From assembly GCA_031425795.1 (NCBI GenBank), contig JANPJZ010000228.1, positions 18 to 64,017 on the forward strand: a stretch of DNA of 64,000 nt, in the 5' to 3' direction. Shown here one piece after another: positions 9,812-64,000 of this stretch (position 1 is its first letter; each line of letters starts with the position of its first letter). The stretch is from Rhodobacter sp. GTDB lineage: Bacteria; Pseudomonadota; Alphaproteobacteria; Rhodobacterales; Rhodobacteraceae. Below the pieces are notes generated by a model. It saw only the letters and a list, made by a program, of their open reading frames with translations. It was not told where the DNA came from and did not search any database. A program made the position numbers and the translations under genes.

Positions 9812-9838
9812 ATCCTACAACGCCCGGGCCCGCCGCAA
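9812..9838 (-). promoter_or_regulatory. Promoter TTGCGG-N15-TAGGAT for the sheath/tube operon
   Basis: Member of the 15-bp-spacer class. Confidence 0.7.
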
Positions 9839-9844
9839 TGGCGG

Positions 9845-11603: not shown

Positions 11604-11605
11604 GC

Positions 11606-13618: not shown

Positions 13619-13628
13619 ATCAGCGGCC

Positions 13629-13655
13629 AGTCTGGTTGAGGGCTGGCCCGGGCAA
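13629..13655 (-). promoter_or_regulatory. Promoter TTGCCC-N15-CAGACT
   Basis: 10 nt upstream of the helicase ATG. Confidence 0.6.
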
Positions 13656-13658
13656 GGC

Positions 13659-14081: not shown

Positions 14082-14082
14082 G

Positions 14083-46872: not shown

Positions 46873-47587
46873 ACTTCGAGCGATTCAGCGGTGCGAACGG
46901 ACGGGGCGTAGTGGAAGGGGCCTTGATGGCCTCGAGCGTCGTGGCCGCCGCTGGGCCAAACACCTCGCGCAATGTCTGCCGTGCAAAAGCAGATAGGGCC
47001 GGCGAAACCATCCTGTTGTTCCGGGTATGCACGGTGGCGACAAGTGGACTTTCGGTGTCCATGCCAACGCGGAGCTTGACGCCCGCTTGGTTGAACTCGT
47101 GGTTCGTGCTCTGGTGATCGGTGTTCACCTGTAGGGCTCCGACCTCCACGGCCAGGGAGGCTGGTAGCACCCGTTCAAGGCGCCCCTTCGACTTCCAGGC
47201 CAGGTACGCGAGGCCCGCATGCGCAGCAGCATCCGGAAAGCAGATAAACTGCTCGCCTTCTGTGCCGCGTACGTGCTTGTTCTCGTGCTGCTGGAACGAC
47301 GCAGAAGCTGCCCGGTCTGCCAGAATATCCTTACCTGGTTTGTGGTCGTCCTTGTGCGCCAGGTCGCGGAACACTGCGGTCTTGCGCTGTTCCAGAGCCT
47401 CCGTCGCGAAGAAGGCGGTCTTCCGGAACTTCGGCTCAGCCTTGGCCAGGTCGCTGTAGTAGTGCGGGAACTCCCGCAGGTGATCCAAGGCTGTGCGCTT
47501 GGCGGCGGGCAGCGGCATGTTGTGCTCCGCATGCTCGTCTTTGGTGCCGGCGGCGACCTCTGCGGGCGGGATGTGCTCAGTGCTCAT
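46871..47587 (-). CDS. Hypothetical protein coupled to the RNAP gene
   Basis: ATG 47587 overlaps the RNAP 3' end. Confidence 0.65.
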   Translation of the reverse strand: MSTEHIPPAEVAAGTKDEHAEHNMPLPAAKRTALDHLREFPHYYSDLAKAEPKFRKTAFFATEALEQRKTAVFRDLAHKDDHKPGKDILADRAASASFQQHENKHVRGTEGEQFICFPDAAAHAGLAYLAWKSKGRLERVLPASLAVEVGALQVNTDHQSTNHEFNQAGVKLRVGMDTESPLVATVHTRNNRMVSPALSAFARQTLREVFGPAAATTLEAIKAPSTTPRPFAPLNRSK

Positions 47588-50500
47588 GCGTCGCTCCGCG
47601 ATTGAACGCAGTATCTCCCTCGGCGATCGGGCGGAAGAGCGCACCGTATGCCAGGCCCGGCACCGGGCTCCCGCTGCCGGTGAGGTCGCTCTTGCCGCCC
47701 ATGGCCGGCACCTGCTGCAGGGTGTCGGTCAGGCGCTGGAAGTTTAGGCGCTCCATCAGGTCGTTGGACCGGCGCAGTGGCAGGCCGTAGAGGCCGGGAA
47801 CGGTGGGCACCGCCTGGACACGCGGGTTCTTGGCCTTGCGGGCCAGGTAGTCGTTCTCGTGCAGCAGGTCGCCAGCGGCCAGGTCGTGCTCGCCACCGTC
47901 GTCGGTGATTTCGACCCAGCGCAGGGTGGCTGAGGCGATCACTTCGAGCACAGGGCGCCGAACCACGGCGCCCGAGGTAGCGTAGGCCTTCCGCGTCTCG
48001 TCGACGACGTACTGCTGGGCCGCCAGGTTGCCCTTCTTCGCCGCGATCTCCTGGGGCCGGTAGCTGCCGTCGGAGAGGGCGTCGCCGATCTTCACGTGGT
48101 CGCCAACCTTGACCTTCAGGGCCCGGCCGGTGCCAATGTAGTGGGCCGGCTCGGTCTCGCCGAGCTTGTCAGGGGTGACCGTGACGTAGTAGCCGCCCTG
48201 CGGGGCCGGCCGGATCTCCGTCACCTTGCCGTCGTGGTCAGCCAGCGTGCCCTGGTCCTTCAGGTCGTGCGGTGCCGTCAGCAGCTCGTTAAGCCGGGCG
48301 AAGCCCGCACTCATGCTGTCGCCGGACCCGACGGTGCCGCCCGAGTGGAACTGCTTCATGATGGCCTGGGTGCTGCGTTCAGAGAACGTCTGGCCATAGT
48401 CCAGGCCGATGTTGGCCCCGACCTCGTGCAGCTTGCCATCTGGCCGCGTGCCAGCGCACATCGAGCACGGCGGGGACATCGACTTGCAGGTCATGGCGCT
48501 GCGGACCTTGAAGTGCATCACCTTGCGGTCACGCAGCGTGGCCAGCATCTCGGGGGTCACCCGGTCGTTGCGCTTGAACGACGTGGTGGGGATCCCGTCG
48601 ACCAGGAACCGGTCGAGGAGGTCTGCATCGTGCCCTTTGACGCCTAGCATGTCCGTCTGGACCTCGATGCCCTCGTGAGTGCCGCAGTCGGCCTCCGTCA
48701 CGCGGATCGGGCCCATGTTGCCGGCGACGCTCTTGGCCAGGTAGCCAGGGAGCGCGGTGGCCAGCGAACGGGCCACGATACCGGCCCGGGCACCAGGGGT
48801 GGTGAGAACGTAATCGCTCGGGGCCATGCCCGAGCCGTAGCCGCTCTTGATTACCTGGGGGATGACCTTGCCAGCGACGTCGGCCACCAGCACAGGGCTA
48901 GCCATCATCTGCTGGTAGCTGTCGAAGCCGAGCTTGGAGCTGGGCTTCGAGGACAAGAAGATCGAGCCGCCCAGGCCGATGCCGTGGAGGTGGTCCGCGA
49001 TTGCGGCGCGCAGGCCCGGCTTCACGTCAGCCTCGAAGTTCTTGAGCGCAACGTCGCGCTTGCCCTTCAGGGTGGACTGCGCCGCGATGTCCCGCTCGAG
49101 CTGGTCGAGCAGGCGGTTGATCTTGGTCCGGTCCATGACCAGCTCATCAACGGTGGCCGTGATGCCGCCGGACCGTGCGCTGGCGGTGAAGCCAGCCTGG
49201 GCAATCCGCTTGCTCAGCATGTTGTAGGAGGCCGGATCCTTCTCAGCGATCTGCGTCAGCAGTGCCTCCAGCTTCTTGCCGTCGATGGGGCTCCCGGCCA
49301 GGCCAGCGTAATAGCGGGGCGGGAGCATCTCCTCGAGCATCAGCCATCCGATCTGCTGTGGCTTGCCGGCCACCGAGACGACGCTGTTCATCTTGAGGTT
49401 CTGCTTCGGGTCGTGGAAGGCCTTGAGCGCGTCGCCTACATCATCGAACTTCTTCCCGCTCGGCTGCCCGGGGCGGGTGAGCATGAACAGGCCCGTGATC
49501 ACGTCCTTATCCACCCCATAGGCGAGCGTGCGATCCTTGTCGTAGAACAGGTTGTTCGACGGGAGCAGGTTGTAGGCCTCCTTCTTCGCAGCATCAGTGA
49601 GCGGCACCGTGATGCTGGTGGTGTCGCCGTCGTAGTCCCCGTTGATGGGGCCCAGGAGCAGCGGGCTCGTCTTGATTTCCTTACCGGGGACCAGGCGCAC
49701 CTTGGCCGAGCTGACGCTCCACCGGTGCAGCGACGGCGCGCGGTTGATCATCACCAGGCGGTCCTGGATCTCGGCGTCCAGGGCGTTCTTGGCGCTCTGG
49801 GTCCGCTTCTGCACCTCGACCATCGCGTCGGCTGGCTTCCAGCCGCTCTGCACCAGGCGGCGGATGATGGCGGGCTCGTAGATCTTCCAGGCCATCAAGA
49901 TCGGGATACCGATCTCGTCGGGGCCCAGGGTGGCATCGGGCTCGATCGTCGACCGGCCCGTGTAATCGTTACGGCGGCGGGTGAGGTTGCGCTGGAACAG
50001 GCCCTCCTTGTTGGACACGCCCTTGATGATGTCGGCAAAGCCGCGCAGCTCTTCAGCGTCCCGGCGCTTGGTCATTGCTGGCGCTAGGCCGATGATGCCG
50101 GCGTGGGCGTCGTAGAGCGACAGGCGGGCCTGGGCCAAATCTGTAGCAGGAAGGCTCTTGTCCTTCTCAGCGCGCTCCACCAGCCCCTTGGTGAGCAGGA
50201 GATCGCGGTAAAGCAAGTTCGCATCTGCGACACGCAGGCCGCCATCCTTCATCTCGATGATCGGCCGGTACTTTGGTGGCACCACGGGCACCACAGAGGT
50301 CAGGTAGGCGTCGGCGGGGGACAGCTCCATGCTCTTCAGGCCACGCAGGTAGCGGGTGACCCGGTTCAGCTTGTTGCGGTCGGACCCGACGGCGGTCTTG
50401 GCCTTCTCCTTGGCCTCAGCCAGGCGCTTGTCGATGTCGAACGACAGCAGGTGCTTGAAGGCGGCCTCGCCGGTCAGCGTCTTGCCGGTGGGCTCTTCCA

Positions 50501-53500
50501 GGAGCTCGCCGGTCTTTGGATCCAGGTGCCGGGTCTCGCCGATCAGTCCGTAGAACTGCGCGGTCTTCAGGCCCGTGATGTCGCGGATGGCCTTCTCGAA
50601 CAGCGGGTTCGGCATCGAGCGGCCCAGCTCGATGTGGCTGTAGTGCTCGCCCTTCAGGCCACCCGTGACCTCCTCGTCGAACAGGCCACCCTTCTCGGCA
50701 GCCAGGTCTTTGGCCCGGATCAGCGACGCCCGGGTCACGGCGCCGTTCGACATTTCGCGGACCTTCTTGTCCGTCATGGGCAGGTAGTGCAGCGAAGTTC
50801 CATCTTTATGCGTGTCGATGCCCATTCCGTGCAGATAACTGCGGAACTTCTCGAACGCGAAGGGCACCTTCGGGGGTGGCGGAAGCTCGCCGGCCTGGTA
50901 GGCGTGCCAGAACTCGTCGTTCTTGGTGCCCCGGATGCCGGCGGACTCGGACAGGATGGCATGGGCGTTGTGGCCCAGCAGCGCGTAGGTCGTCAGGTGG
51001 TCGAAGCTCTGGCCGCCCTTGCCCTTGCCGCGCGTCGGCTCCTCGTCCATCGTGTAGCCGTCCCGGGTCCGGGCGCTGAACTTCTTGCGCACGGCGTGGT
51101 CCAGCTTGACGACGTAGTTGAAGCCGGTGGCGACTGGCTCCTCGAGGTCCTTGCCGGTGACAGGATCGTGGAGGATCTCGGCATGCTTCAGGCCGGCCTT
51201 CTTGAGCGCAGCAGCGATCTCCCGGGCATGATCGCGGCCGTCAAAGTTAGCGTGGTTGTACTCGACGCCGCCATCCTTCACCAGCTTGCCGGCGGCCTGC
51301 TCGATGGTCTGGGAGGGGTTGATGCGGCCGGCCACGCCGTGGGGGTTGAAGATTACCTGGATCGAGCGGCCCTTTTCGTCCGTCGGCATCTCGTGGTCCG
51401 GGATGATGGCGGAGATGGTGCCCTTGGCAGCGGAGCTCATGGAGAGCTTGTCACCGACCCGGCAGGGCTCTTCGGTCTCGAGGTGGACCTCGACGCGGTC
51501 CTTGTTTTTGAGAACGCGCACGACCTTGCCCTGGAACTCTTCGTCCCAGGCGAGGGCTGCGTTCACGTAGGGGCGCTCGAGGATCTTGTGGATCTCGCCG
51601 AGATTCTTCGAGCTCTTGTCCGTGGGGTCGTAGACGCGCTTGCGGACGGCCAGCACCAGGAGGTCGCCGGGGCTGACGATGGAGCCCGCCTTGATCAGGC
51701 CGTTCTCGTCGAGCTTCTCCAGGCTACCGGGCTGGAACACCGTCGGGAACTGGGCGATGAACAGCTTGCGGTTGACCTCGAGGCCAGCCATATCCAGGTA
51801 GGACCGGTGGACATGCTGGGACGCCAGGTGCTTCGCAGCGCTCTCGCTGATCGCGATGGCGTCCTCGAAGTTCGATGCGTTCTTCCAGGGCATGTAGGCA
51901 GAGAGCAGGTTGGTGCCCAGGGCCAGCTTGCCGTTCTTGGAGTAGTTCGAGTCCGCGAGCAGGTCGCCCTTCTTGACCATGTCGCCAACCTTGACGACGG
52001 CCTCGTGGTGGATGGCGACCTTGGCCTGCATCGGGTATTTGTCGAACAGCTCGTGCTTGACGTCCCCGACCCAGATGGCGTTCGGCTCGACCTTGGTGAC
52101 CTTGCCGGACACGGTGGCCCGGACGACGAACGACCGCGCGATGGACTCGAGCACGTCGCCGCCGGCGATGTCCTTCAGGCCCACCAGGGGGAGCTCGCGG
52201 TGGGTGAGCGGCAGCGCCTGGGTCAGGTGCTTACCGGCCATCATGCCGCGGTTGGGATGGGTGTGGGCGAAGAACAGCGCGGCGTTCGAGGTGTGGTCGA
52301 ACATCGACGCGCCAGAGGGGATGGCGTAGGTGACCGACTTGGCCGGGACGCTGACGACTTCGCCGTCCTTGATGGCACGGACGAGGCCAACCCGGGACTG
52401 GTTCCGGTCCTTCGGATCGACGCCTGCAGCGCGGTCGATAGCATCGTCTTTGGCGGCCTGGGCTTTGGTATACGAGATCGTGTCGCCGGTCTTCAGATCG
52501 AAGTATTCCGGGTACATGACGACTTCGTCGCTGGCCTGCTCGATCGAGAGGTACTTCGGCGCCGACAGGTTCACCTTCCCGTTGATGACGGGATAGTAGG
52601 GAGCCTTGAGGGTTTTGTCCTCGCGAATGACGTTGGCTGCAGCATGTGTTGTAACACCGATCTCGCTCCCTTCCGGGGTGTGGACGAGGTCAATAATATT
52701 AGAGGCTGTTGGGCGGAACAGACGGGCGCCCATCGTGATCGCGTGGCTGCTCTGGATGCCGCCTTCACCGGTCAGCGTCATCTTGCTCTGCTCGGACAGG
52801 ATCGCGAGCGGGTTGGCGGCTTCTGCAGTCGAGGCCAGGCCACCGGGCATGCCGCCACCGCCGCCGAAATAGCCGATCGTAGCACCGTTCAGCCAGGTGC
52901 CATTTCCGAAAATTCCGGAAATGCTGGAATCCTTGTCAGCCAGCCGCCGCAGCGTCTTGTTCTTCGTCATGCGCCAGTACTTGGCGATGCGCTCGGCCAT
53001 CAGGTCCTCGAGGCCGTGGGCGCTCTTGAACTCGGGGGCGTCACGGTCATCGGGTTCGACATCGCCGCGCTGGACAGCAAAGATCTGGCCGGCGGCCTTG
53101 AGCAGCAGCTCAGGGCCCACCTTGGAGATGGCCTTGCCGAGGGTCTTGCGGGTGACGAACGGGTCCACATCGCGGCCGTCCATCCACTGCTTGATGAATG
53201 CGACCTTGTCGTTGTAGCCCATCGCCGTGCTGACGGGCCGCTCGATGATGCCACCCTTCAGCAGGTCCTGGTCCAGCTTCGTCTTGGACACGGCCTCATA
53301 GAACTTTTCGACGTCCTTCACCATGGCGGCGTCGGTCATCTTGTTCATCTCGACGACCGCCCGGGCGTGTTCCGTGCTGCCGAGGGCGGTGGCCATCTCG
53401 CCTTCGCTGACGCCCAGGGCACGCATGACGGCGTACCAGGCGACATTGGTGGTGCCCTTGCCGAGCTTCAGCAGGCCCTTGCTGGGCTCCATCCAGATGG

Positions 53501-53948
53501 TGAGGCCACCACCCTTGAGGGGGATGAACGCCTCGTACTGGCCGTTGGCCATCTCGCGGGTGTAGCAGCCGGGCTTCAGGCGGGTCTGGGCGAACGGGGT
53601 GTACCAGTCGGCGCCCTTGACCATGGCGGTGCCCAGGCCGGTGTAGAGCGGCAGGTCGCCCAGGCGCACCTTCTGCTTCGTCTCCACGACCTTGCCGTCG
53701 CGCACCAACTGCACGTCGGCGTAGATCTTGGCACCCAGGGTCTTACCGGCCTGGCGGGCCTCCTGGTGGGCGATGCGGCCGATCGGATTGAAGTCGCCGG
53801 CGTCCACGACGACGTTGGTGGCCCGGGCCTCCGTCCGGCCGTCGGTGGTCTGCAATGGAAACAGCCCAGCCACAGCCGCTGCGACCGTCGTCTTCAGCTT
53901 CTGGTTGGCAGCATCGTAGGATGGCGTCGGCGCGATAGGCTCAGGCAT
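47577..53948 (-). CDS. rpoBC: Fused beta-beta' multisubunit DNA-dependent RNA polymerase
   Basis: beta: NFEDAI, GDKLS..KG, FNPHGV.GRIN, KLDH, GGQ; beta': NRAPSLH, NGDYDGD (49623-49643), GAR.G bridge helix, TQAIMKQFH trigger loop, Zn cysteines. Confidence 0.95.
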   Translation of the reverse strand: MPEPIAPTPSYDAANQKLKTTVAAAVAGLFPLQTTDGRTEARATNVVVDAGDFNPIGRIAHQEARQAGKTLGAKIYADVQLVRDGKVVETKQKVRLGDLPLYTGLGTAMVKGADWYTPFAQTRLKPGCYTREMANGQYEAFIPLKGGGLTIWMEPSKGLLKLGKGTTNVAWYAVMRALGVSEGEMATALGSTEHARAVVEMNKMTDAAMVKDVEKFYEAVSKTKLDQDLLKGGIIERPVSTAMGYNDKVAFIKQWMDGRDVDPFVTRKTLGKAISKVGPELLLKAAGQIFAVQRGDVEPDDRDAPEFKSAHGLEDLMAERIAKYWRMTKNKTLRRLADKDSSISGIFGNGTWLNGATIGYFGGGGGMPGGLASTAEAANPLAILSEQSKMTLTGEGGIQSSHAITMGARLFRPTASNIIDLVHTPEGSEIGVTTHAAANVIREDKTLKAPYYPVINGKVNLSAPKYLSIEQASDEVVMYPEYFDLKTGDTISYTKAQAAKDDAIDRAAGVDPKDRNQSRVGLVRAIKDGEVVSVPAKSVTYAIPSGASMFDHTSNAALFFAHTHPNRGMMAGKHLTQALPLTHRELPLVGLKDIAGGDVLESIARSFVVRATVSGKVTKVEPNAIWVGDVKHELFDKYPMQAKVAIHHEAVVKVGDMVKKGDLLADSNYSKNGKLALGTNLLSAYMPWKNASNFEDAIAISESAAKHLASQHVHRSYLDMAGLEVNRKLFIAQFPTVFQPGSLEKLDENGLIKAGSIVSPGDLLVLAVRKRVYDPTDKSSKNLGEIHKILERPYVNAALAWDEEFQGKVVRVLKNKDRVEVHLETEEPCRVGDKLSMSSAAKGTISAIIPDHEMPTDEKGRSIQVIFNPHGVAGRINPSQTIEQAAGKLVKDGGVEYNHANFDGRDHAREIAAALKKAGLKHAEILHDPVTGKDLEEPVATGFNYVVKLDHAVRKKFSARTRDGYTMDEEPTRGKGKGGQSFDHLTTYALLGHNAHAILSESAGIRGTKNDEFWHAYQAGELPPPPKVPFAFEKFRSYLHGMGIDTHKDGTSLHYLPMTDKKVREMSNGAVTRASLIRAKDLAAEKGGLFDEEVTGGLKGEHYSHIELGRSMPNPLFEKAIRDITGLKTAQFYGLIGETRHLDPKTGELLEEPTGKTLTGEAAFKHLLSFDIDKRLAEAKEKAKTAVGSDRNKLNRVTRYLRGLKSMELSPADAYLTSVVPVVPPKYRPIIEMKDGGLRVADANLLYRDLLLTKGLVERAEKDKSLPATDLAQARLSLYDAHAGIIGLAPAMTKRRDAEELRGFADIIKGVSNKEGLFQRNLTRRRNDYTGRSTIEPDATLGPDEIGIPILMAWKIYEPAIIRRLVQSGWKPADAMVEVQKRTQSAKNALDAEIQDRLVMINRAPSLHRWSVSSAKVRLVPGKEIKTSPLLLGPINGDYDGDTTSITVPLTDAAKKEAYNLLPSNNLFYDKDRTLAYGVDKDVITGLFMLTRPGQPSGKKFDDVGDALKAFHDPKQNLKMNSVVSVAGKPQQIGWLMLEEMLPPRYYAGLAGSPIDGKKLEALLTQIAEKDPASYNMLSKRIAQAGFTASARSGGITATVDELVMDRTKINRLLDQLERDIAAQSTLKGKRDVALKNFEADVKPGLRAAIADHLHGIGLGGSIFLSSKPSSKLGFDSYQQMMASPVLVADVAGKVIPQVIKSGYGSGMAPSDYVLTTPGARAGIVARSLATALPGYLAKSVAGNMGPIRVTEADCGTHEGIEVQTDMLGVKGHDADLLDRFLVDGIPTTSFKRNDRVTPEMLATLRDRKVMHFKVRSAMTCKSMSPPCSMCAGTRPDGKLHEVGANIGLDYGQTFSERSTQAIMKQFHSGGTVGSGDSMSAGFARLNELLTAPHDLKDQGTLADHDGKVTEIRPAPQGGYYVTVTPDKLGETEPAHYIGTGRALKVKVGDHVKIGDALSDGSYRPQEIAAKKGNLAAQQYVVDETRKAYATSGAVVRRPVLEVIASATLRWVEITDDGGEHDLAAGDLLHENDYLARKAKNPRVQAVPTVPGLYGLPLRRSNDLMERLNFQRLTDTLQQVPAMGGKSDLTGSGSPVPGLAYGALFRPIAEGDTAFNRGATHEH

Positions 53949-53954: not shown

Positions 53955-53981
53955 AGTATGGCCCCCGCCTTGCCCCTGCAA
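53955..53981 (-). promoter_or_regulatory. Promoter TTGCAG-N15-CATACT, leaderless (6 nt to ATG 53948)
   Basis: Member of the 15-bp-spacer class; supports ATG 53948 over TTG 53981. Confidence 0.7.
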
Positions 53982-53984: not shown

Positions 53985-56126
53985 TTACGCCCGGCTGAAC
54001 GGCGTTGTGGCTCCGCGCCGGGCGGCCATCGCGGGGTCCACTGGCGTCGGCGTCAGGTCCACCTTGGGCAGCGGCGGCCGGGTGGGCACCACCGCGGGCT
54101 TGATGTTGCACAGGTCGCTGATGTCTGGGCTGGTCAGCTTCTGCAGCGCCAGGATGAGCCGGAGCAGGGCCGCGATGCGGGAGTTGACGCCGGCCTTGGT
54201 CGCAGCCCGGGGCAGGCGGTCGAGCTGCCCGATGGTGAGCGCTTTGGCTTTGTCGCGGCTCTTCTGGGCGCTGAAGTAGTCCAGGGCCTTGCTGGCGATG
54301 TCGGACAGGGTGGGGTTGGAACACTGCAGCAGGAAGCACTGCAGGGCCTCGACGATGACGTCCAGGAAGTTGGTTTTCTCCCCCGAGAGGACACTGAGCG
54401 ACTGCAGCTGCCGGGCCAGCTGGGTGCTGGTGGCGGCCAGGGCTGCCAGCTGACGGACAGCCTGGATGACGGCAGCGACGTCAGTGGCCGCGGACAGGAA
54501 TGCCGCGTTACCGAGTGTCAGCCGGTCCATGAGGCAGTTGAGGTAGGCCTCCCGGGCGTCGAGAGCGGACTTGAGGGCGGCGCCGCTGGCCTGGACGTCC
54601 CGGTTGTGGGAAGTGCGGCCGCGCAGCCGCTCCTCCGCAGCAGTCAGGTAGCGCTTCAGCTGCTCGCCGACGACCTTGGCCCCCTCGATGTCGCCGCAGT
54701 CTTCGGCAGCGAAGCGGGAGACGAAGGACTTGATCTGCAGCATGATCTTGCTGTTCAGCTTGATCAGGCGGTTGAGGGCCCCTTGGAGGCGCTCCGTCCG
54801 CTTCATCAGGTAGCACAGCACGGTCAGCGTGGCGTAGGCACCTGTCTGCACGCCGACGTAGGAGGAAATGTCCTGGCCGCCCTCCCGGGGCTGCAGGGCC
54901 GGGTCGCCGGCCCCGGCCGGTGTTGGCGGTGCCGGAACACCCAGGGCCGCCCAGTCCACGCCCAGACTGCCCGCGCCCTCTTGGGTGAGCGTGAAGCCGG
55001 CGCCGGAGGCCTCGAGCTGGCGGCGGACCTCGTTGATCTGCCGGTGGAGGATCTGCACCACCTGAGCGAGCATGTCGGCGACGTGCAGGCTGGTCAGCGA
55101 CTCGATGGTGTTCATCAGGTCGATGAGGTTGGCGTGAAAGGCCTTGATGGGCGGATCCGCGCGCTGGAGGGCATTGCCCCAGAACAGCAGCTGCATGGTG
55201 GCGATGCGAAACTGTGGGTCCGGCATGAACTGGAACTTGGCCAGGGCGTTCGCCTGCATGTCGGACAGGCCGTACATGTTCTTGATGTGCCGGGCGAACA
55301 CTTTGCTCATCTTGCCGTTGCCGATGGCGTCCTTCGCCGCGCACACTTTCTCGGTGGCCTGGCCGAATTCTGGCTTGTTCCAGATGCGGTTGCCGCGCAA
55401 CTGGTCGTGCACGTTCTTGAGGTGCCCGGCGGCCTGGCACAGAAGGTCGGACGCTTCAGCGTTCGGCAGGTTCGGCTGCATTGACGGCGGCAGCTTCGAG
55501 GTCTCCCGTAGCGACTTCTTCAGCGCGCTCTTCATCTTGCGGATATAGACGAGCTCGTTGGTGACCGCCGGGATGGTTGACTGGATGCCGTAGACCAGCA
55601 GGCCCAGCAGGCCCAGGCCGGCCTCGTCCTTGGACGTCAGCTCCATGCGCAGGATGTACGCCAAACGGTCGGAGATCTGGGGGCCGATGCCGTCGGATCC
55701 CCCGTACGCGTCGGCGATCTGGTTGCCGGTGAACTCGATGACGTTCACCTGGCCTGCGAACATGGACAGCATGTTACCAGAGAAGGCGTCGAACATGGAC
55801 TTGGCCAGGGTGCTGGCCATGTCGGCAAAGCCCTCGTCGGCGCTGAAGTCGGTGCCGGCGGGGACCAGGAGATCATGCAGGGCGGAGGAGGCCTCAACGA
55901 AGGGGCTGGTCAGGGCCTCCACCGCGTAGGTGGCGGTGCCGGAGTCGGCCAGGCCGTCGGTGGTGACGGCCGAGCCGCCGGTGCCAAGGGCCGTGGCCAG
56001 CTTGAGGATGCAGGAATCGAGGTTGAGGGAGCCATCGTCGTTGACGAAGTATTCCCCAGCACCGCTGAGGGCGGCCATCAACGCGGAGGCCTCCTCCATG
56101 TTGTCGAACAGGGTCGCTTTCGACAT
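53985..56126 (-). CDS. Large helical hypothetical protein
   Basis: 713-aa ORF, 1 nt after the sigma stop. Confidence 0.75.
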   Translation of the reverse strand: MSKATLFDNMEEASALMAALSGAGEYFVNDDGSLNLDSCILKLATALGTGGSAVTTDGLADSGTATYAVEALTSPFVEASSALHDLLVPAGTDFSADEGFADMASTLAKSMFDAFSGNMLSMFAGQVNVIEFTGNQIADAYGGSDGIGPQISDRLAYILRMELTSKDEAGLGLLGLLVYGIQSTIPAVTNELVYIRKMKSALKKSLRETSKLPPSMQPNLPNAEASDLLCQAAGHLKNVHDQLRGNRIWNKPEFGQATEKVCAAKDAIGNGKMSKVFARHIKNMYGLSDMQANALAKFQFMPDPQFRIATMQLLFWGNALQRADPPIKAFHANLIDLMNTIESLTSLHVADMLAQVVQILHRQINEVRRQLEASGAGFTLTQEGAGSLGVDWAALGVPAPPTPAGAGDPALQPREGGQDISSYVGVQTGAYATLTVLCYLMKRTERLQGALNRLIKLNSKIMLQIKSFVSRFAAEDCGDIEGAKVVGEQLKRYLTAAEERLRGRTSHNRDVQASGAALKSALDAREAYLNCLMDRLTLGNAAFLSAATDVAAVIQAVRQLAALAATSTQLARQLQSLSVLSGEKTNFLDVIVEALQCFLLQCSNPTLSDIASKALDYFSAQKSRDKAKALTIGQLDRLPRAATKAGVNSRIAALLRLILALQKLTSPDISDLCNIKPAVVPTRPPLPKVDLTPTPVDPAMAARRGATTPFSRA

Positions 56127-56127: not shown

Positions 56128-56832
56128 TCAGGTGGGCCTCAAATAGGGGTTCAGCTTCTTGCCGATGCTCTCCTTCACCGCACTAATGCGGGCGGGAGAA
56201 ACGCCCAGCTTGGCTGCCATGGCACTCGGCTTCAGCTTCGGCTGGCCGTGGGCCCCGAAGGTGTAGTCGAACACCGTCTTCTCTTGTGGCGACAGGCTAT
56301 AGTAGGCCATGATCGCCCGCTCGTAGTCGGGGTCGTGCTCGATGTCGGTGATGTCGTCCGAGTCTTCGCCGGAGATCACCAGGTCCTTCCGCAGCATCTT
56401 CCGCAGGGACACGACGTGCGTCACGGCGACGCCCATGTGGTCGGCGATCTCGTGGGTCGTGGGCTCGCGGCCGAACCGGATGGCCAGGTCGCCGACGGCA
56501 GCGTTGAAGGGCCCGATGCGCTGGATCTGGTGCTCGGGGATCCGGGCGACGTTCTGGTGCTGGCCCACGTAGCGGTGCAGGTCGTTGCGGACCTTGGTGC
56601 CGACGTAGGACGCCAGGCTCATGCCCTTCGCGCCGTCCCAGGACCGGATGGCGTCCACCGCGCTGGCCTTGGCCTCGAGCTCCAAGATCTGAAACGGGAG
56701 CGGGGCCGCCCGGTAGGTGTTGACGGCGGAGCCGACGACGCCCTTGAGGCCATCCAGCAAGTCGCTGAGGGCCTTGTCCTTCTGGGAGAACGTCGCGCCT
56801 TTCCAGGCAGCATAGAGCTCTGCGTCAGTCAT
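56128..56832 (-). CDS. Sigma-70-family sigma factor (FliA/SigB-like, regions 2-4)
   Basis: AIRSWDGAKGMSLASYV; RIPEH; GREPT.HEIADHMG; LSPQEK.V..FG..A.KLGVSPARIS. Confidence 0.9.
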   Translation of the reverse strand: MTDAELYAAWKGATFSQKDKALSDLLDGLKGVVGSAVNTYRAAPLPFQILELEAKASAVDAIRSWDGAKGMSLASYVGTKVRNDLHRYVGQHQNVARIPEHQIQRIGPFNAAVGDLAIRFGREPTTHEIADHMGVAVTHVVSLRKMLRKDLVISGEDSDDITDIEHDPDYERAIMAYYSLSPQEKTVFDYTFGAHGQPKLKPSAMAAKLGVSPARISAVKESIGKKLNPYLRPT

Positions 56833-58904
56833 CGGGACCCGTCCGTAATTTGCCGTGCGATGGCATCCGCAATCGTGAGGGCGATTTCGGCCCGCACCAT
56901 CGACAACTCGCCGGTCTCGTAGATGCCGTAGGTGGTCGGGCCCTCCTTGTCGGCGAACGTCAGCTGGCGGGGTGTGAGGAACGGGCCGCTGGTCAGGACG
57001 TTGGTGTCGCCCGGGCCGTTGAAGATGGTCTCCGGCGGGTCGATGGACCCGTCGAGGACGCTGGCGTCGAAATCAGGCACGTCCTGGCCAAGGTCATGGG
57101 CATTGAGGTACTGGGCCAAGGAGGTGCCGGCCCGGTACTGGTATTCGTACTGGGAGGCCTTCGGGTCTGCCATGGTGCGCAGGCGGTCGGCTTCGGTATC
57201 GTCGGAGACGAGGCCGGCAGACGCGAAATCGGCGGAATACTGGGGCGTGGCCACCACCTCGCCGACAGCCTGGTCGATGTCGACCTGGGCCTCGATGTCC
57301 TCGATCCCCAGGAGGGCGGCCAGGATCTGGCTGGCGGCGTCAGGCTTTGCCAGGCCCTCCAGTCGCGCCGTCGTCACCGAGGCCGGGCAGCCGAGCATCT
57401 GCTCGAAGGTCGACCCGATGAGCCGGGGCGCGTAGGCCGAATTCATGTGCAGCGACAGCGGTGCCGTGCGGGTGGTGCCGACAACCTGGTACGCCTCCCG
57501 GACCTGGGAGAGCGACACGGTGGTGAGCGGGGCACCGCCGCTGGGGAGCAGGTGCGTGACGCTGTCGACGAAGCCCAAGAGCGGGGTATCCCCGTCCTCG
57601 ACCAGCGTGGTGAAGCCAGGGGCCAGGTAGGGGAGGAACTGCGCGGTGACGTTGGCGCGCAGCTGCTGGCCCCGGGCCACCTGCCAGGCGGCCTGCGTCG
57701 CCAGGGCGGCGTATCCGGCGAGCTGCTTGGAGGAGGCCTCCGCGCTGGCCGCGGCGATCGACGCGTCCTTTTGTTTGCCAGCCGGGAACAACCGCTCCAT
57801 GGTGAGCTGGTGGTACTGAAGCTGGACGCCCAGGTAGAGCTCCTCGTTTGACAGGATTCCATGCGACATGGCATGAGAGCCGCGCATGTTTTTGGTCAGG
57901 TCTGCGGGTGGAGAGGCCACGCCATTGGCCATGTAGAGGATCGGAATGGCCGTGTCGGACATCGAGCTCTGCGAGGTGAGATCACCCACCACGCGGGTCG
58001 GCAGCGAACCAAAATCCACCGAGTCGTTGACGGAGGTCAGCTGGTCCCGGAAAATCACATTGCAAGCCGGCGGCACGGTGTCGTACAGCAGCGGCAGGAA
58101 GAGCAGCTCTGGGAGTCGCGGAGTCGTCGACCAGGTGGTGCCATTGCGCACCGGCTTGGTGCTGAAGGTTGGCGGGGCCACCAGGGGCACATGCACGTAG
58201 TTGGCGATGGCCTCGATGCGGGACACGATGGTCGACAGCGCGGTGTTGGCCCCGAAAGCGTAGGTGGCCAGCCCGTTCTTCATGACGTCGTCGAGGCGGT
58301 CGAAGTCGATGAGCCGACGGATCTCGGCGTCGGGCATCGCGAACATCTTGGTCGCCAGGCGCCGGGCCTCGAAGTAGAAGGCCTCGACGTTGGCCTGGCC
58401 CGCCAGCTTCTGCAGCATGGACGGCATGAAGGAGGAGAACAGGCCAGCCGGGTTGGCCTGGTACGCCTCGGACAGCAGGGCGCCGACGGAATGCAGCTGG
58501 GTGGGGCCGCTGGCAGAGGTGCCGACATCGGTGCCACCGGCCCAGGCCCGCACTGCGGTGGCAGCCAGCTCGTCCCGGGCGCCGGCGACGGTGGTGTAGG
58601 TGGCGCTGTCGGTGAAGCCAAACAACCCGCGGCATGACAGCACCCGGGTCCGGTTACCATTGGAGTCTTTGCCGCGGCTGCGGCCGATGTACTCGCCCTC
58701 GCACAGCAGCCGCCAGGTGTTGGTCACCGGGTCGACGAAGAACACCACCACGTGTGACCGGGGCGGCAGCAACTGCCACTCGGCCACCGGCACCACATCC
58801 AGGGAGAACGACAGGTAGCTGTTAACCGCCACCGTGACGGACACGGAGCGAGGGAAGAAGCGAACCCCGTTGATGTAGGCGACGGTGCGGAGGTTGGTGG
58901 CCAT
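56829..58904 (-). CDS. Baseplate hub / tail-associated protein (gp27/gpD-like)
   Basis: YINGV..V.V..F.L..LPPRS.V.VF..EGEY; APP.CNVIF; PGF.LV. Confidence 0.6.
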   Translation of the reverse strand: MATNLRTVAYINGVRFFPRSVSVTVAVNSYLSFSLDVVPVAEWQLLPPRSHVVVFFVDPVTNTWRLLCEGEYIGRSRGKDSNGNRTRVLSCRGLFGFTDSATYTTVAGARDELAATAVRAWAGGTDVGTSASGPTQLHSVGALLSEAYQANPAGLFSSFMPSMLQKLAGQANVEAFYFEARRLATKMFAMPDAEIRRLIDFDRLDDVMKNGLATYAFGANTALSTIVSRIEAIANYVHVPLVAPPTFSTKPVRNGTTWSTTPRLPELLFLPLLYDTVPPACNVIFRDQLTSVNDSVDFGSLPTRVVGDLTSQSSMSDTAIPILYMANGVASPPADLTKNMRGSHAMSHGILSNEELYLGVQLQYHQLTMERLFPAGKQKDASIAAASAEASSKQLAGYAALATQAAWQVARGQQLRANVTAQFLPYLAPGFTTLVEDGDTPLLGFVDSVTHLLPSGGAPLTTVSLSQVREAYQVVGTTRTAPLSLHMNSAYAPRLIGSTFEQMLGCPASVTTARLEGLAKPDAASQILAALLGIEDIEAQVDIDQAVGEVVATPQYSADFASAGLVSDDTEADRLRTMADPKASQYEYQYRAGTSLAQYLNAHDLGQDVPDFDASVLDGSIDPPETIFNGPGDTNVLTSGPFLTPRQLTFADKEGPTTYGIYETGELSMVRAEIALTIADAIARQITDGSR

Positions 58905-58905: not shown

Positions 58906-60843
58906 TTAGAACAGCACGGTGACAGGGGCGTTTGGCGCGAGGTAGGGCGACGTCGGGATCAGCGAGAAGGTCAATGATCCGCCAGACGAAGGGGTCTCGG
59001 CATAGAAGAACAGGAGCACGCGCATTGAAAAGCCATTTTCGTCTGCCGTGGGGCGCAGTGGCCGCACGCGCGCAGATGTCGTGCCAATCTGGAGTGTCGC
59101 GGTCTTGTCCCCCGTCAAAGGCACGAAAACTCCGGGGTTCGCAACAGACCCCGAGTTGGAATCGTATGTCCCGTAGCTATCGACGATCTTCAAGTTGTAT
59201 GCTGCCAAGACATCGTCTGGCCGACCGGCGCCGGGAGCAAAGGCACCAGAGACCGTGACCTCCCACGTCGTGGTCCGGGTCCCGGCAGCGGCCACGCGGA
59301 GTGTTGGGATCGCTTGGTTTGGGGTGGTGGCGCCGGAGGCACTCAGCACCCGCAACGTGAAACTCGGCAGGTCAAACGTGCCGCTCGACGAATTGAAGGT
59401 GAATGCCTTCTCCGGGACCACGTTGTTCTGGAGGTCCGTGAGGGCGGCCGCCGGGAGCGTCAGCGTCAATGTGGCCGAGCGTGAGGAGGTCGCAGTGACC
59501 GTTGCAGTTGCCCCCTCAGAACCCGTCATCGTGGGCACGGAGGAGGTGTTCACCTCGCGTTTGAACTCGAGCCCCAGGGAGACCACGCCGTTCGGTGCCG
59601 CATTCAGGGGCACGGTCTGCAGGCGGGTCAGGTCAGGGAAGCTGATGGGTGGCGAGGAGCCCCGCACGGCGCCGCTGATGACGCCGGGGCTGGCTTTCGG
59701 CTGGGCGTTCTCGGCGGTGAAGGCGATCGATTCTTTCGTCGTGCCCGCCTGCACCTTGATGGTGGCCGAGCCACCAACGAACTTGGCGAGTTCTGACACC
59801 GTGATGCCGACCTGGACAGCCTGGTCTTTCTGGGCAACGGTGGAGTCCCGGCCGTCAGTGAATGTGAAGGTCGCCCCAGGCATAGAGCCCGTCAACTGGA
59901 GGGGCCCAGGCGCTGCCAGGGTGACGGTGGCCACCGGGTAGAAGCCCACGGCGGTGACCTTGGGCTGCGTGCCGGTGGCGGACACCGTGATCTTGTTGGT
60001 GCCGGTGGCGGCGACGATCTCGGCGTTGAGTACTGCCCGGGCCTTGGGCCGGGTGGTGCGCGGGGTGCCGGCGAAACGCTTCAAATACCGGGTGAGCTCG
60101 GTGGCCTGCCCCGGGTGGTTGCGGTCGCGGGCTACAAAGGTGAACGTGAAGGACGCGAAGCCTTCGGACCCCGAATCGCGGGTGGGCGTCATGGACAGCA
60201 CCCAGCCGTCGAAGACTTCGCCATCGACGGTGATGCGGGTGAAGCGGCCGGTCTCGGCCTGCTTGGTGATGCGCAGGTAGTCGTCGTAGAAACGTAGGAA
60301 GGCCGCGTAATGGGAGACGGTGGGCCGGGACGTGCCGCCACGAGAGCCGCCGGAGGTCCGGCCGCCAGTCAGCGTCGTCCGCAGCGAACCGCTGAAGGTG
60401 TACCGGCGCATGAAGCGACCCGAGGTGAACACGTGCGGGATGCCGAAGGTCTCGACGACTTCCGCTTTCTCGGCGTCGCCGCCAGTGACCGAGTTCAAGA
60501 TCCAATCTGAGAAGACTGGCGCGGTGGTCTGGGCCGTGGCGTCCGTGTCAGACAAAATCTGGATGACGGGGCGGTTGGAGTAATCGGTGGACCCCAGGGA
60601 CCCCGGCCGGGCCATATCGGGAACAGGGTGCCGGGTCGCGCCGAGCGGGTTGATGACGAAACCTGCCAGGGTGCCATTCTTGCGCCCCTTCTCAGCCGCC
60701 GTCTGCTGCCGGGCGCCGATGACCGCCCAGGGTTTCGCTACCGCGGTGACGAACTTGTCCCAGGCATTCGGGGCCGAAGGCTGAACCGGTGCCGTTGGCG
60801 TAGCATCCGGGGGCGTGGCGGGAGGAACGGACGCATCAAACAT
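58906..60843 (-). CDS. Tail tube initiator-like baseplate protein with beta-rich C-terminal extension
   Basis: WILNSV..EKAEVVETFG..F..Y.FSG.L pattern; follows the tape-measure cluster. Confidence 0.5.
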   Translation of the reverse strand: MFDASVPPATPPDATPTAPVQPSAPNAWDKFVTAVAKPWAVIGARQQTAAEKGRKNGTLAGFVINPLGATRHPVPDMARPGSLGSTDYSNRPVIQILSDTDATAQTTAPVFSDWILNSVTGGDAEKAEVVETFGIPHVFTSGRFMRRYTFSGSLRTTLTGGRTSGGSRGGTSRPTVSHYAAFLRFYDDYLRITKQAETGRFTRITVDGEVFDGWVLSMTPTRDSGSEGFASFTFTFVARDRNHPGQATELTRYLKRFAGTPRTTRPKARAVLNAEIVAATGTNKITVSATGTQPKVTAVGFYPVATVTLAAPGPLQLTGSMPGATFTFTDGRDSTVAQKDQAVQVGITVSELAKFVGGSATIKVQAGTTKESIAFTAENAQPKASPGVISGAVRGSSPPISFPDLTRLQTVPLNAAPNGVVSLGLEFKREVNTSSVPTMTGSEGATATVTATSSRSATLTLTLPAAALTDLQNNVVPEKAFTFNSSSGTFDLPSFTLRVLSASGATTPNQAIPTLRVAAAGTRTTTWEVTVSGAFAPGAGRPDDVLAAYNLKIVDSYGTYDSNSGSVANPGVFVPLTGDKTATLQIGTTSARVRPLRPTADENGFSMRVLLFFYAETPSSGGSLTFSLIPTSPYLAPNAPVTVLF

Positions 60844-61108
60844 TGTACACCCCGAGGTCCACGGTCTTGATGGTGGCCAGGGCATCGGCGGGCTGCGTGC
60901 GTGCTGTCAACGCCAGCCGAGCCGTGGCCTGGAAGTGGCCGGCCAGCGGGGCCAGCTTGTCCCGGGCGGCCTGGCCGGCCAAACGCTGGGCATCTTCCCG
61001 GAAGATGGGCCGGCCAACCGGATCCGTCTCGATGTGCCCGTTGTCGTAGACGTAGCGGGTGTACGTCCCGACGTAATCGGTCTCAATCGTCTTGGAGATC
61101 AGGCTCAT
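60836..61108 (-). CDS. Small hypothetical protein
   Basis: Coupled ORF. Confidence 0.6.
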   Translation of the reverse strand: MSLISKTIETDYVGTYTRYVYDNGHIETDPVGRPIFREDAQRLAGQAARDKLAPLAGHFQATARLALTARTQPADALATIKTVDLGVYNV

Positions 61109-61758: not shown

Positions 61759-61921
61759 CGGAGCCTCCAGGGGTCAGCGCGCTAACAGCGGCAGACAACG
61801 AATCAGTGAGCTTGTCGAATGTCGAACGCTCCGTCACTTTCACCTTCACGATGTGCGCGGTCACCTGGACGATCTTGTCGTCGAGGTCAACGGTCTTCCC
61901 GAGAATGGCGGCGCTGCTCAC
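61748..61921 (-). CDS. 57-aa ORF filling the gap after the tape measure gene
   Basis: GTG overlaps the TGA stop (GTGA); GGAGA SD; MSSAAILGKTVDLDDKIVQV..; below the ORF-track cut-off. Confidence 0.55.
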   Translation of the reverse strand: MSSAAILGKTVDLDDKIVQVTAHIVKVKVTERSTFDKLTDSLSAAVSALTPGGSDGK

Positions 61922-64000
61922 TTCGCTTCTCCGATGTTCAGACGTTTGATGAGTTCATCCAGGATCTGGGCTGTCCGCACCTGCGTGTTCACCGCCTTGC
62001 TGAGGATCCCGTCGGGGCTCTTCTCCATGGCGCCGAGACCCTGGAGGAAGGCAGCCTTGGCGGCGTTGGCATCCTGGCCCATGCCCTTGCCGACGGCCTT
62101 TTCGTACTGGTCGAGGGACATGCCGAACAGCTTGGCGTAGCCAGCGCGATCGGTCGCGGTGTCCACCTTGAGGAGGGCCTGGAGCTGCTCGATATTGCGG
62201 TCACCTGCGACAGCATTCTCCAGGACGCCGCCCGCGCCGAGGGCGTTGAACAGCTGGCGCTTGTCACCGGCCATGCCATGGAGCTTCTCCCGCGCCCCGC
62301 CGGTGAGCGAGCCGTCGAGGTAGTTATACAGGCCCGACAGGCTGTGATCGACAGCGCGAGAGGCCCCTGCAGCGGAGGCTTCCGAGTAGTGGGTCCCGTA
62401 TCCGCGACGTTCGTCTGCCGACAGCCCGCCCAGGTTCGCATCAAGCCGGGCCAGATCCTTCGTCGTCATGTTGGCGCTGTCGAGCAGGCCGCCCCGGGCC
62501 AGGAGCTTGGCTCCGGTGTCCCCCGAGGAGAATGCAGAGATGTAGGAGGCGAGCGCCCCCGCGCCTTCGGACGTTTGCACGTTGGCGGACGAACTGATCC
62601 CCGACAGCACGGCGCTCGTGGCGGCGTCGCTGGCGATGCCGCCGTAGTTCTTGAAGGCCCCGGTGACCGACAGGCCACTGCCGCCGGCCGCCAGGGCGGC
62701 TGCGACGGACGAGGCGGACATGCCGTACTGGGCGGCGATGGCGGACACTTCGCCGGCAGCCGACAGCGATTCGTTCCGTGACAGCTGGCGGCCAGAATAG
62801 CCGGTGGCCAGGTTCTGGAAACGGGTGTCGCTCGCCAGGCGCTGCAACGTCTCACGGCCGGCCTGAGAGGCCCCGGTGGCGGTGGTCTTCTGGATGGCGT
62901 TGAGGGTGTTGTACTGGTCGGCTGAGATCTGCGTCGCGGCACCGGAGGGGGCGAACCAGCCGCCGCCCAGGGCGCCGCCGTAGGCACCGAGCGTGCTGCC
63001 GGCCGCAAAGCCCAGGCCCCCGGCCACGAGCGACAGACCACCAGTGAACGGCGCAGCAGCGGCTGCCATTGCCAGGCCGCCGAGGCCCGCACCACCAAGC
63101 ACCCCACCAGCGATGGAGAACCAGGGGTTGGAAGCCGTATGGTAGGTCAGGTCGGCGCCGGCCTTGGCCGGTGCACGCGGATCCCGCAGTGCGGCAGCCA
63201 TGCCGTTCAGCGACAGCGAATCCACAGCGAGGCCCATGCCCAGGGCATTCCGCTGGTTCTTGGCCGCGCTGTCGAACCCCAGGAAGCCCGTCTGGCCCGG
63301 GTCGAGGGAGGCTTCGATGCCTGCTAGGACGCCGGTGTATCCGCCGCGCAGGTCTGCAAGCCCGCGATGCCAGGCACCGGCGGACGAGGCATTCATGTAG
63401 TAGGCGTCGTAATCGCTGGCCGCGTCCATGCTGGCGCCGGCCCCGGCAGCGCGAATGGACTGGGAAGCCGCGCTGAACTGGCCGGCAGCCGAGTACCGGC
63501 GGGCCGCCATGTTGGCGACCGCGGCATTCCCGGTCTTGTCCAGGTAGAATTTGCGGGCCACGGCCTGGCGACGCACCGCACCACCGCCGACCATACTGGC
63601 CTGCTGATCGATGTAGCGGTCCACCGCGGCCTGGCCGGCGTTGGGATCAAGCCCATCCAGGAGATCGCTGGACCCGAGCTGCAGCGCCAAGGTGGCATCG
63701 AGGTCGCCACCGATCGCGCCCAGGCCGGTGGTGAGGCCGCCGAGGTAGCTGGAGCCGCCGCCGATCATCGCCAGCATTGACGGGGTGCTGCCTAAGAAGC
63801 CTTGCTGGGCCTGGGTCACGGCGGCAGCGTAACCGTTCGCGCCGCCGGCCTGGGCCATCAGGTTCTGGGACACCAGCCCGGACCGGCTCATTGTGCGCGC
63901 GGCCGCCAGGTTGGAGCCGTAGAGGCCCGCAGAGGTGCCTGCCGAGATCCCGGCCCCGAGGCCGCCGGTGATCGCCTGCAGGGCGCCCGGGACCATGTCG
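61918..64000 (-). CDS. Tape measure protein, C-terminal part (5' end outside the window)
   Basis: Long Ala/Gly-rich helical ORF with Gly-zipper TM segments; frame open to the window edge. Confidence 0.75.
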   Translation of the reverse strand, partial: DMVPGALQAITGGLGAGISAGTSAGLYGSNLAAARTMSRSGLVSQNLMAQAGGANGYAAAVTQAQQGFLGSTPSMLAMIGGGSSYLGGLTTGLGAIGGDLDATLALQLGSSDLLDGLDPNAGQAAVDRYIDQQASMVGGGAVRRQAVARKFYLDKTGNAAVANMAARRYSAAGQFSAASQSIRAAGAGASMDAASDYDAYYMNASSAGAWHRGLADLRGGYTGVLAGIEASLDPGQTGFLGFDSAAKNQRNALGMGLAVDSLSLNGMAAALRDPRAPAKAGADLTYHTASNPWFSIAGGVLGGAGLGGLAMAAAAAPFTGGLSLVAGGLGFAAGSTLGAYGGALGGGWFAPSGAATQISADQYNTLNAIQKTTATGASQAGRETLQRLASDTRFQNLATGYSGRQLSRNESLSAAGEVSAIAAQYGMSASSVAAALAAGGSGLSVTGAFKNYGGIASDAATSAVLSGISSSANVQTSEGAGALASYISAFSSGDTGAKLLARGGLLDSANMTTKDLARLDANLGGLSADERRGYGTHYSEASAAGASRAVDHSLSGLYNYLDGSLTGGAREKLHGMAGDKRQLFNALGAGGVLENAVAGDRNIEQLQALLKVDTATDRAGYAKLFGMSLDQYEKAVGKGMGQDANAAKAAFLQGLGAMEKSPDGILSKAVNTQVRTAQILDELIKRLNIGEAK

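Follow-up and report, generated by a model that had tools for sequence, protein, structure and literature searches.

A phage gene predicted to encode a bacterial-type RNA polymerase core as a single beta-beta' chain without the beta' N-terminal Zn ribbon

The DNA analyzed here, a 64,000-nucleotide stretch that we call the window (positions 18 to 64,017 of contig JANPJZ010000228.1, Rhodobacter sp. assembly GCA_031425795.1; G+C content 65%), carries on its minus strand a single gene that combines a bacterial-type RNA polymerase's beta subunit with its beta' subunit. The whole contig is 110 kb long and also carries genes for a tail sheath, a prohead protease, and a terminase with an intein, as judged from Pfam and PHROG matches. 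The polymerase gene and its parts are listed below, with residues numbered from TTG 53981, the opening codon of the listed open reading frame (ORF), so that the parts span residues 12-2134.

47577..53948, minus strand: RNA polymerase gene with beta and beta' fused, 2,123 codons and a stop codon at 47577-47579 (ORF, translation, Pfam, and PDB)
50805..53948, minus strand: beta module, ORF residues 12-1059
47580..50804, minus strand: beta' module, ORF residues 1060-2134
50775..50834, minus strand: beta/beta' junction, ...GMGIDTHK followed directly by DGTSLHYLPMTDKKV..., placed by alignment to Salmonella RpoB/RpoC and 34 family members
52749..52871, minus strand: counterpart of rifampicin cluster I, placed by alignment to Salmonella RpoB
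51420..51455, minus strand: beta active-site motif GDKLSMSSAAKG, residues 843-854, with both lysines kept and RHG lost
50985..51017, minus strand: GGQSFDHLTTY in place of GGQRFGEME, residues 989-999
50625..50690, minus strand: GGLFDEEVTGGLKGEHYSHIEL, residues 1098-1119, where the beta' Zn ribbon is deleted
49623..49643, minus strand: catalytic Asp triad motif NGDYDGD, residues 1447-1453
48450..48698, minus strand: second beta' Zn site, retained (TEADCGT ... CKSMSPPCSMCAG), its cysteines at least 90% conserved in the family

The ORF list gives a single minus-strand frame from 53981 to 47577, opened at TTG 53981. Because this TTG is the start of TTGCAG, the -35-like hexamer of a promoter-like site, we took ATG 53948 as the true start, which gives a protein of 2,123 amino acids (aa). 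Pfam domains follow one another along the chain in the order Rpb2_3 and Rpb2_6 (beta), then Rpb1_1, Rpb1_2, and Rpb1_5 (beta'). The best solved relatives in a PDB search were bacterial beta' chains, with E values down to 3e-78, and the closest PHROG families matched at 1e-82 and 1e-56, while identity to any bacterial beta or beta' was 23-27%. The chain is 23% shorter than Salmonella beta plus beta' (2,749 aa), and compared with the smallest of the sampled bacterial pairs (at most 2,303-2,357 aa, from Patescibacteria, Saccharibacteria, and one reduced gammaproteobacterium) it is shorter by at least 8%. "Minimised" therefore seems a fair label, although most of the absent parts are lineage specific in bacteria too. 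We rejected an assembly artefact as the source of the fusion, because the same architecture recurs in 74 homologues of 1,950-2,160 aa that are free of inteins.

We then aligned the window protein and 33 relatives with 25 bacterial beta plus beta' pairs, including Salmonella RpoB/RpoC, and adopted E. coli numbering. Beta residue 1339 directly precedes beta' residue 16 at ORF residue ~1059 (window ~50805), with no added linker domain, and the junction sequence is conserved across the 34 family members. Absent from beta are residues 1-23 (N-terminus), 221-349 (SI1), 938-1046 (SI2), and 1127-1180, and absent from beta' are residues 66-97 (Zn ribbon), 152-172, and 944-1130 (SI3). Across the whole family the two subunits are fused, the beta' Zn ribbon is lost, and SI1, SI2, and SI3 are lacking. 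The 32-residue gap against E. coli beta' 66-97 was observed in all 34 fused members as well as in the phages Arash and D69 (see below), and with it the Zn ligands Cys70, 72, 85, and 88 of the N-terminal ribbon are gone family-wide. The original prediction, made from the window sequence, had described a compact single-chain beta-beta' of about 2120 aa at 47577-53948, joined at 50790-50815 and lacking the beta' N-terminal Zn-binding domain; the one 2,123-aa ORF, its length relative to the bacterial pairs, the position of the join, and the absence of beta' 66-97 with its four cysteines agree with this description, and the motifs that it quoted (NGDYDGD, GDKLSMSSAAKG, GGQSFDHLTTY, and GGLFDEEVTGGLKGEHYSHIEL) are all present in the translation.

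Parts retained in the alignment are the Asp triad, K1065, K1073, R1106 (in GRIN), the ED pair for Mg-II (in NFEDA), the bridge helix, the second Zn site, and the beta' C-terminal region. The trigger loop keeps M932 and H936, with R933 replaced by K. The counterpart of rifampicin cluster I shows the changes Q513S, F514T, D516E, H526E, R529K, and S531T together with a 5-residue insertion. AlphaFold2 models of each half, built from family and bacterial alignments, reached a predicted local distance difference test (pLDDT) score of 86.1 and a predicted template modelling (pTM) score of 0.83 for the beta module (TMq 0.72-0.74 against bacterial beta at full length, from Thermus, Synechocystis, and others), and a pLDDT of 86.2 and pTM of 0.81 for the beta' module (TMq 0.82-0.88 to solved bacterial beta'). 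The N-terminal 380 residues have no Pfam match, yet were modelled as ordinary beta lobes. Overall, the alignment and the models show that the one polypeptide comprises a complete RNA polymerase core of the bacterial two-barrel type, pared down to its conserved parts, without the lineage-specific SI1, SI2, and SI3 and without the beta' N-terminal Zn ribbon.

The "divergent active-site neighbourhood" of the original prediction proved to be a mixture of traits of different breadth, and as a family-wide feature it stands for the GGQS.D.LT.Y change and the Zn-ribbon loss. The RHG loss is confined to a sub-clade at 52-63% identity, in which SMSSAAKG is conserved, while the distant clade and Arash retain G(R/L)HGNKG (GLHGNKG in Arash). 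The three aspartates of the triad are invariant in the 34 family members, and the G and Y variants in NGDYDGD were found only in the window protein and its 95% relative P0002; other members have NADFDGD, and Arash has AADYDGD, where F is likewise replaced by Y.

The family is large. A word-indexed homologue search gave 360 scored homologues, mostly of 2,040-2,120 aa, many with inteins and on contigs of up to 204 kb, and in an exhaustive search at least 659 clusters (50% identity, E<=1e-10) matched the family-specific N-terminal 388 residues. Among the best 150 of these 659 clusters, 65 are at least 1,950 aa long and 31 are of 1,380-1,949 aa, the remainder being fragments. The commonest form is a single chain of ~2,050-2,120 aa; others are split as in Arash and D69, into beta-beta'N and beta'C. 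IMG/VR holds at least 406 relatives, and among the best 79 IMG/VR loci the polymerase is one ORF in 57 (including 15 with large inserts), at least eight are split after the catalytic domain, and one has in-frame TGA codons. Nine family genomes in IMG/VR measure 173-211 kb and are rated 84-100% complete, and we have seen the lineage only in tailed phages with genomes of ~170-210 kb.

Inteins or homing-endonuclease inserts interrupt many of the family polymerase genes (P0003, P0004, P0012, P0020-P0025, and others), in one member inside the catalytic motif, between NADFDG and the final D; the window copy is free of inserts. Three candidates were set aside during this survey. L044 (IMGVR_UViG_3300000172_000001), taken at first for an unfused member, has a fused polymerase gene in a single frame at 10001-15952 that contains four in-frame TGA codons; the contig has 35% G+C, and its phage probably reads TGA as an amino acid. 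L078, considered as a published mReC contig because its metagenome is also in the mReC table, has a fused gene with an insert instead. MT836236 ("Bacteriophage sp.") looks like contamination with bacterial rpoB/rpoC.

To place the family, we built concatenated beta plus beta' trees (62 taxa, 1,914 columns; FastTree with LG+gamma, and IQ-TREE -fast with LG+F+G4 and SH-aLRT). These, like the beta'-only tree described below, are fast maximum-likelihood trees under site-homogeneous models, with long branches and with archaea left out, and the mReC stand-ins in them were picked by length only. The 24 bacteria (~12 phyla) form a split with support of 1.0 in FastTree and 100 in IQ-TREE, the fused family with Arash and D69 forms another (1.0 and 100), and all fully fused members form a third (0.84 and 79); the mean patristic distance is 2.0 within the family versus 1.05 among the sampled bacteria. 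When two mReC-length IMG/VR contigs with adjacent subunit genes (beta ~1,010-1,022 aa, beta' ~904-924 aa) were added, the split of bacteria from all phages still had a support of 100, and the added contigs formed their own clade. In a beta'-only tree (67 taxa, 993 columns) with giant-virus RPB1 homologues as the root, the earliest branches are the mReC-like and the Carin-5-like groups; the fused family joins Bacteria and two other phage beta' at 100 but falls outside the 26 bacteria (100), and its monophyly with Arash/D69 has a support of 90.8. The trees exclude recent capture from a sampled bacterial group and do not establish a pre-bacterial origin. The enzyme does not cluster within a bacterial clade as a recent horizontal transfer, the outcome against which the original prediction had been set, since one split with a support of 100 holds every sampled bacterium and leaves the family out; the label "deep-branching", on the other hand, is not established, since with this root the family is the sister of Bacteria and not basal to all bacterial-type enzymes.

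The prediction had also linked the enzyme to the mReC phages. These likewise encode compact bacterial-type beta and beta' that are recognisable by COG and Pfam and lie outside cellular clades, but as two genes, whereas the window enzyme is one gene. The published mReC table lists only pairs of different ORFs, of 999-1,563 and 899-1,391 aa (Weinheimer & Aylward 2020, PMC7481178), and mReC capsids and terminases match PF07068 and PF03237 (PMC7481178). The window capsid candidate (19472-20404) had no PF07068 match at E<=0.05, and the terminase had only a weak PF05876 match. Length-matched mReC stand-ins (L259, L272, L234, and L235) form a clade apart from the fused family, those of type-1 length keep the Zn ribbon, and fused-gene contigs occur in two metagenomes of the mReC table yet not in the table itself. 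The link is thus not shown: with one gene, with the mReC markers unmatched, and with fused contigs not in the mReC table, we do not file the window polymerase as mReC, although the two are broadly alike in having a phage-owned bacterial-type core. Among the stand-ins, L235 (IMGVR_UViG_3300031669_004775) encodes at 8004-11033 on the minus strand a 1,007-aa phage beta' of the second mReC type's length in which the Zn ribbon is absent (GLFSEKIFGVENSRERSQTYSYIEL), while the ~900-aa type of phage beta' keeps its Zn-ribbon cysteines; phage enzymes may have lost the ribbon on more than one occasion.

Other known systems share single features with the window enzyme. The phiKZ and AR9 enzymes are likewise phage two-barrel polymerases without alpha or omega, and one of their two enzyme sets is packaged in the virion (PMC7598289); they differ in consisting of 4-5 very divergent polypeptides and in having no sigma (a gp68/gp226-type factor instead), where the window enzyme is one chain, and PHROG matches of the window enzyme to this type are weak (E 1e-23 or worse). 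The crAss-like gp66, YonO, and the tape-measure-fused polymerase of P23-45 are also single-chain two-barrel phage enzymes, some of them delivered by the virion, but are minimal or extremely divergent, sigma independent, and undetectable by beta/beta' Pfam models. Natural fusions in Helicobacter and Wolbachia, and an engineered E. coli fusion, join the beta C-terminus to the beta' N-terminus; in contrast to the window family, to which no descent links them, these are cellular enzymes with a Zn ribbon, alpha, and omega. In the Carin-5/GN1 type a phage sigma adjoins compact bacterial-type subunits, as in the window phage, but the genes are separate, beta' comes before beta, the Zn ribbon is kept, and the enzymes sit on a long branch of their own. 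Cobetia phage Carin-5 (L167) and Yersinia phage GN1 (L170) encode a beta' of 1,083-1,090 aa followed by a beta of 925-927 aa, the reverse of the bacterial order; an annotated sigma lies directly upstream in Carin-5, its GN1 counterpart ORF is annotated as hypothetical, and both large genes are labelled "subunit beta". In the literature that we searched, we found no description of the fused family, the only published trace being the routine annotation of Arash. Polymerases of multisubunit type in phages, natural fusions of beta with beta', and virion polymerases are each known singly; the combination of a single-chain full bacterial fold, predicted sigma dependence, no alpha or omega genes, and no Zn ribbon is undescribed in that literature.

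In phage collections the nearest records come from Salmonella phage Arash (181 kb) and from Vibrio phages D69, D148, and D181 (187 kb), with 29-30% identity across most of the chain. These phages, with Gp206 and Gp216 as the Arash proteins, resemble the window phage in the beta-to-beta' join, the Zn-ribbon loss, an orthologous sigma, and the virion gene set. They differ in that the chain is cut after the catalytic domain into a beta-beta'N of ~1,525 aa and a beta'C of ~606 aa encoded several kb away, where the window phage has one chain, and Arash keeps GLHGNKG where the window phage is without RHG. By tblastn, the window contig and Arash have in common a core set of sheath, capsid, protease, TerL, portal, SNF2 helicase, sigma, and polymerase, and so belong to one viral lineage beyond a single shared gene. 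In Arash particle preparations, the polymerase Gp206 had the highest spectral count of all proteins, and Gp216, the sigma Gp10 (100% coverage), and the helicase Gp217 were also detected (PMC10585845). The Arash authors offer two readings, packaging for early transcription or carry-over of abundant proteins (PMC10585845).

Upstream of the polymerase gene lie the following features.

53955..53981, minus strand: promoter-like site TTGCAG-N15-CATACT, read from the sequence, its -10-like hexamer ending 6 nt before ATG 53948
53985..56126, minus strand: 713-aa protein with no assigned function, between sigma and polymerase, no Pfam or PHROG match
56128..56832, minus strand: phage sigma factor, 234 aa (Pfam Sigma70_r3, phrog_351), two genes upstream of the polymerase in the same strand block

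The sigma is 28% identical to Arash Gp10 over 231 aa in an end-to-end alignment. The gene order [~790 aa]-[~730 aa]-sigma-[713-845 aa]-polymerase is the same in two relatives at 54-56% identity, and the genes at 53985-56126, 56829-58904, 58906-60885, and 61918-63996 gave no match to Pfam or PHROG and none by tblastn in distant relatives. We scanned the 110-kb contig for TTG[CA]NN-Nx-YANNNT ending no more than 45 nt upstream of a called start. With an N15 spacer, 7 of 19 sites lay near starts, and with N16, 4 of 16 did; spacers of N12-N14 and N17-N20 gave 0 or 1 near starts each. The N15 site of the polymerase gene itself is an eighth case, not counted among the seven since the gene was called from TTG. 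The 15-nt spacer noted in the original prediction was thereby recovered, both as an enrichment just upstream of gene starts and as TTGCAG-N15-CATACT before the polymerase gene. Because the -10-like hexamer ends 6 nt before the ATG, a transcript from the predicted promoter of this gene would be a leaderless mRNA. In bacterial holoenzymes the beta' Zn ribbon and zipper sit near the spacer DNA, and the E. coli Zn ribbon can be deleted without loss of catalysis; that the fusion or the Zn-ribbon loss lies behind the 15-nt spacer is a reasonable idea, offered as speculation.

We looked for the remaining bacterial subunits. The 110-kb phage contig has no alpha (PF01000) or omega (PF01192) match, and in the metagenome-assembled genome (MAG) that includes it, matches to both were found only on host contigs, with rpoA, rpoC, and rpoZ all on contigs other than the phage contig. 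At E<=1, searches for the alpha N-terminal domain (PF01193) and omega (PF01192) gave no match in Arash, in D69, or in any of the nine IMG/VR genomes with a completeness rating of 84-100%, while both models matched all 14 control genomes. The predicted lack of an alpha or omega gene therefore holds for the contig and for 11 related phage genomes.

Several further features of the contig were recorded. Its ends are an exact 141-bp inverted repeat (window 1-170; contig C228, 1-190), and the same element recurs mid-contig at 66.4-66.9 kb, upstream of the sigma-polymerase block. The element holds copies of CATAAGTCATTG-N9-RNTACTCCGCGACTCT, some of them followed by the perfect 20-bp palindrome CCGCGACTCTAGAGTCGCGG. 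Copies of CCGCGACTCT in the MAG lie on this contig in 12 of 13 cases, and the CATAAGT..TTG part is on no other contig. The element could act as a promoter of a second class, as an origin, or as a site for recombination. The gene for the large terminase subunit (29464-32403, minus strand) is interrupted by an intein with a LAGLIDADG endonuclease, and a gene at 11606-13618 (minus strand) encodes an SNF2-type helicase fused to a HAD phosphatase, the helicase part being 35% identical to Arash Gp217; by analogy with RapA, this protein could be a polymerase-associated remodeller. Two tRNA genes, tRNA-Ala(TGC) at 40148-40223 and tRNA-Pro(TGG) at 42482-42560, lie on the plus strand.

We consider it probable that the gene encodes a polymerase core of the phage's own, directed by the phage sigma; this core may work without alpha and may travel in the virion. 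The core would pair with the sigma encoded two genes upstream, and the holoenzyme would read phage promoters of the form TTGCNN-N15-YANNNT, that of its own gene included; this part we hold to be very likely, given the neighbouring sigma gene and the promoter scan. Rifampicin would probably not bind the core, because the counterpart of cluster I is altered. The alpha dimer and omega would be dispensable because the covalent beta-beta' link could stand in for the assembly platform, a step towards which the searched genomes incline us with some reserve. In the last step, core and sigma would be packed in the capsid and enter the cell by injection along with the DNA, which would make phage transcription independent of the host polymerase from the start; here we regard the arguments as evenly balanced.

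The case as a whole draws on sequence comparison, predicted structures, and the cited Arash proteome, and several points weigh against it. In bacteria sigma docks on the clamp helices and flap tip, which the window protein has in strongly diverged form, and the assignment of the sigma to the N15 promoters comes from co-occurrence only. Alpha independence is suggested by missing genes; none of the conserved beta and beta' regions is lacking, and host alpha might therefore still bind. The contig is probably about half of the genome, and an alpha-like or second polymerase gene could lie elsewhere; the repeated promoter-like element of the contig was found on no other MAG contig, and the remaining half of the phage genome was not found by this route. 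Lastly, the Arash "virion" list comprises 116 of 272 proteins, including ribonucleotide reductases and RNA ligases (PMC10585845), which makes carry-over of abundant infection proteins likely, and no enrichment of Lys-x-Ala, taken as a marker of head-processed or capsid-loaded proteins, was found in the polymerase, the sigma, or the 713-aa protein.

These last points lend themselves to a different account, in which the enzyme is made after infection, host polymerase reads the early genes, and the phage enzyme serves middle or late transcription, like T7-type or phiKZ non-virion enzymes. A proteome that looks contaminated with metabolic enzymes (PMC10585845) and a polymerase with no head-processing signature would suit this account, as would a polymerase gene that sits behind the same promoter class as the structural genes, which would fit a late autocatalytic circuit; the separate promoter-like element CATAAGTCATTG...CCGCGACTCT, repeated at the flanks of large transcription units, could then be a host-read early class. 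However, Gp206 had the top spectral count in Arash particles and the sigma was covered completely (PMC10585845), and if the phage promoters of the gene are read only by its own enzyme, some of that enzyme must be present at time zero. We regard this account as tenable but doubtful. A hybrid enzyme, in which a host alpha dimer (and omega) would still be the platform for assembly of the fused chain, as for Helicobacter beta-beta', seems unlikely to us. Both modules have full-length bacterial-type folds with intact C-terminal regions, and natural and engineered bacterial beta-beta' fusions still use alpha. Against this, alpha and omega genes were not found in any family phage searched, an enzyme at 23-27% identity to bacterial subunits would seem unlikely to bind the alphas of many hosts across a diverse family, and phiKZ- and AR9-type enzymes work without alpha (PMC7598289).

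Two further explanations are far less probable. The contig was binned in a bacterial MAG of equal G+C content (65%), as would be expected of a bacterial rpoBC fusion, a recent bacterial capture, or a bacterial contig; but rpoC, rpoA, and rpoZ of the MAG itself lie on other contigs, this one holds phage structural genes, the bacteria-only split (24 bacteria in the concatenated tree and 26 in the beta'-only tree) excludes the family at 100, and the low identity to any bacterial enzyme also argues against it, so that we hold this explanation to be improbable in the extreme and, as far as the sampled bacteria go, refuted. That the protein is a catalytically dead relic with a structural or DNA-binding role, as the unusual substitutions beside the active site (SSA for RHG, GGQSFDHLTTY for GGQRFGEME, and divergence around the fork loop) might suggest, is very improbable as well: the protein has lost neither the Asp triad nor the two lysines, R1106, the ED pair, or the Met and His of the trigger loop, and the substitutions are conserved across the whole sub-clade, which argues for purifying selection.

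Returning to the self-encoded, sigma-directed core, we put forward tentatively, and with clearly less confidence than its parts, that this is the simplest natural sigma-programmable polymerase of the cellular class: one chain plus a 234-aa sigma, lacking alpha, omega, and the Zn ribbon, and forming a capsid-packaged holoenzyme, injected together with the DNA, of an old, phage-only lineage between mReC-like enzymes and Bacteria, with the Zn-ribbon loss tied to a family-specific promoter geometry (15-nt spacer and leaderless transcripts). Cellular RNA polymerases are thought to need an alpha-type platform that joins the two large subunits, and an alpha-free fused enzyme, if real, would test this rule directly and would reveal which parts of the bacterial enzyme are dispensable (the Zn ribbon, SI1-3, alpha, and omega). 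It would also offer synthetic biology a two-gene, sigma-addressable transcription system that is probably not inhibited by rifampicin. The family adds a further phage lineage of bacterial-type polymerases outside the sampled Bacteria, distinct from the mReC-like enzymes, and marks a large and nearly unstudied group of ~170-210-kb phages, with Arash and D69 as cultured models, that likely run their own transcription.

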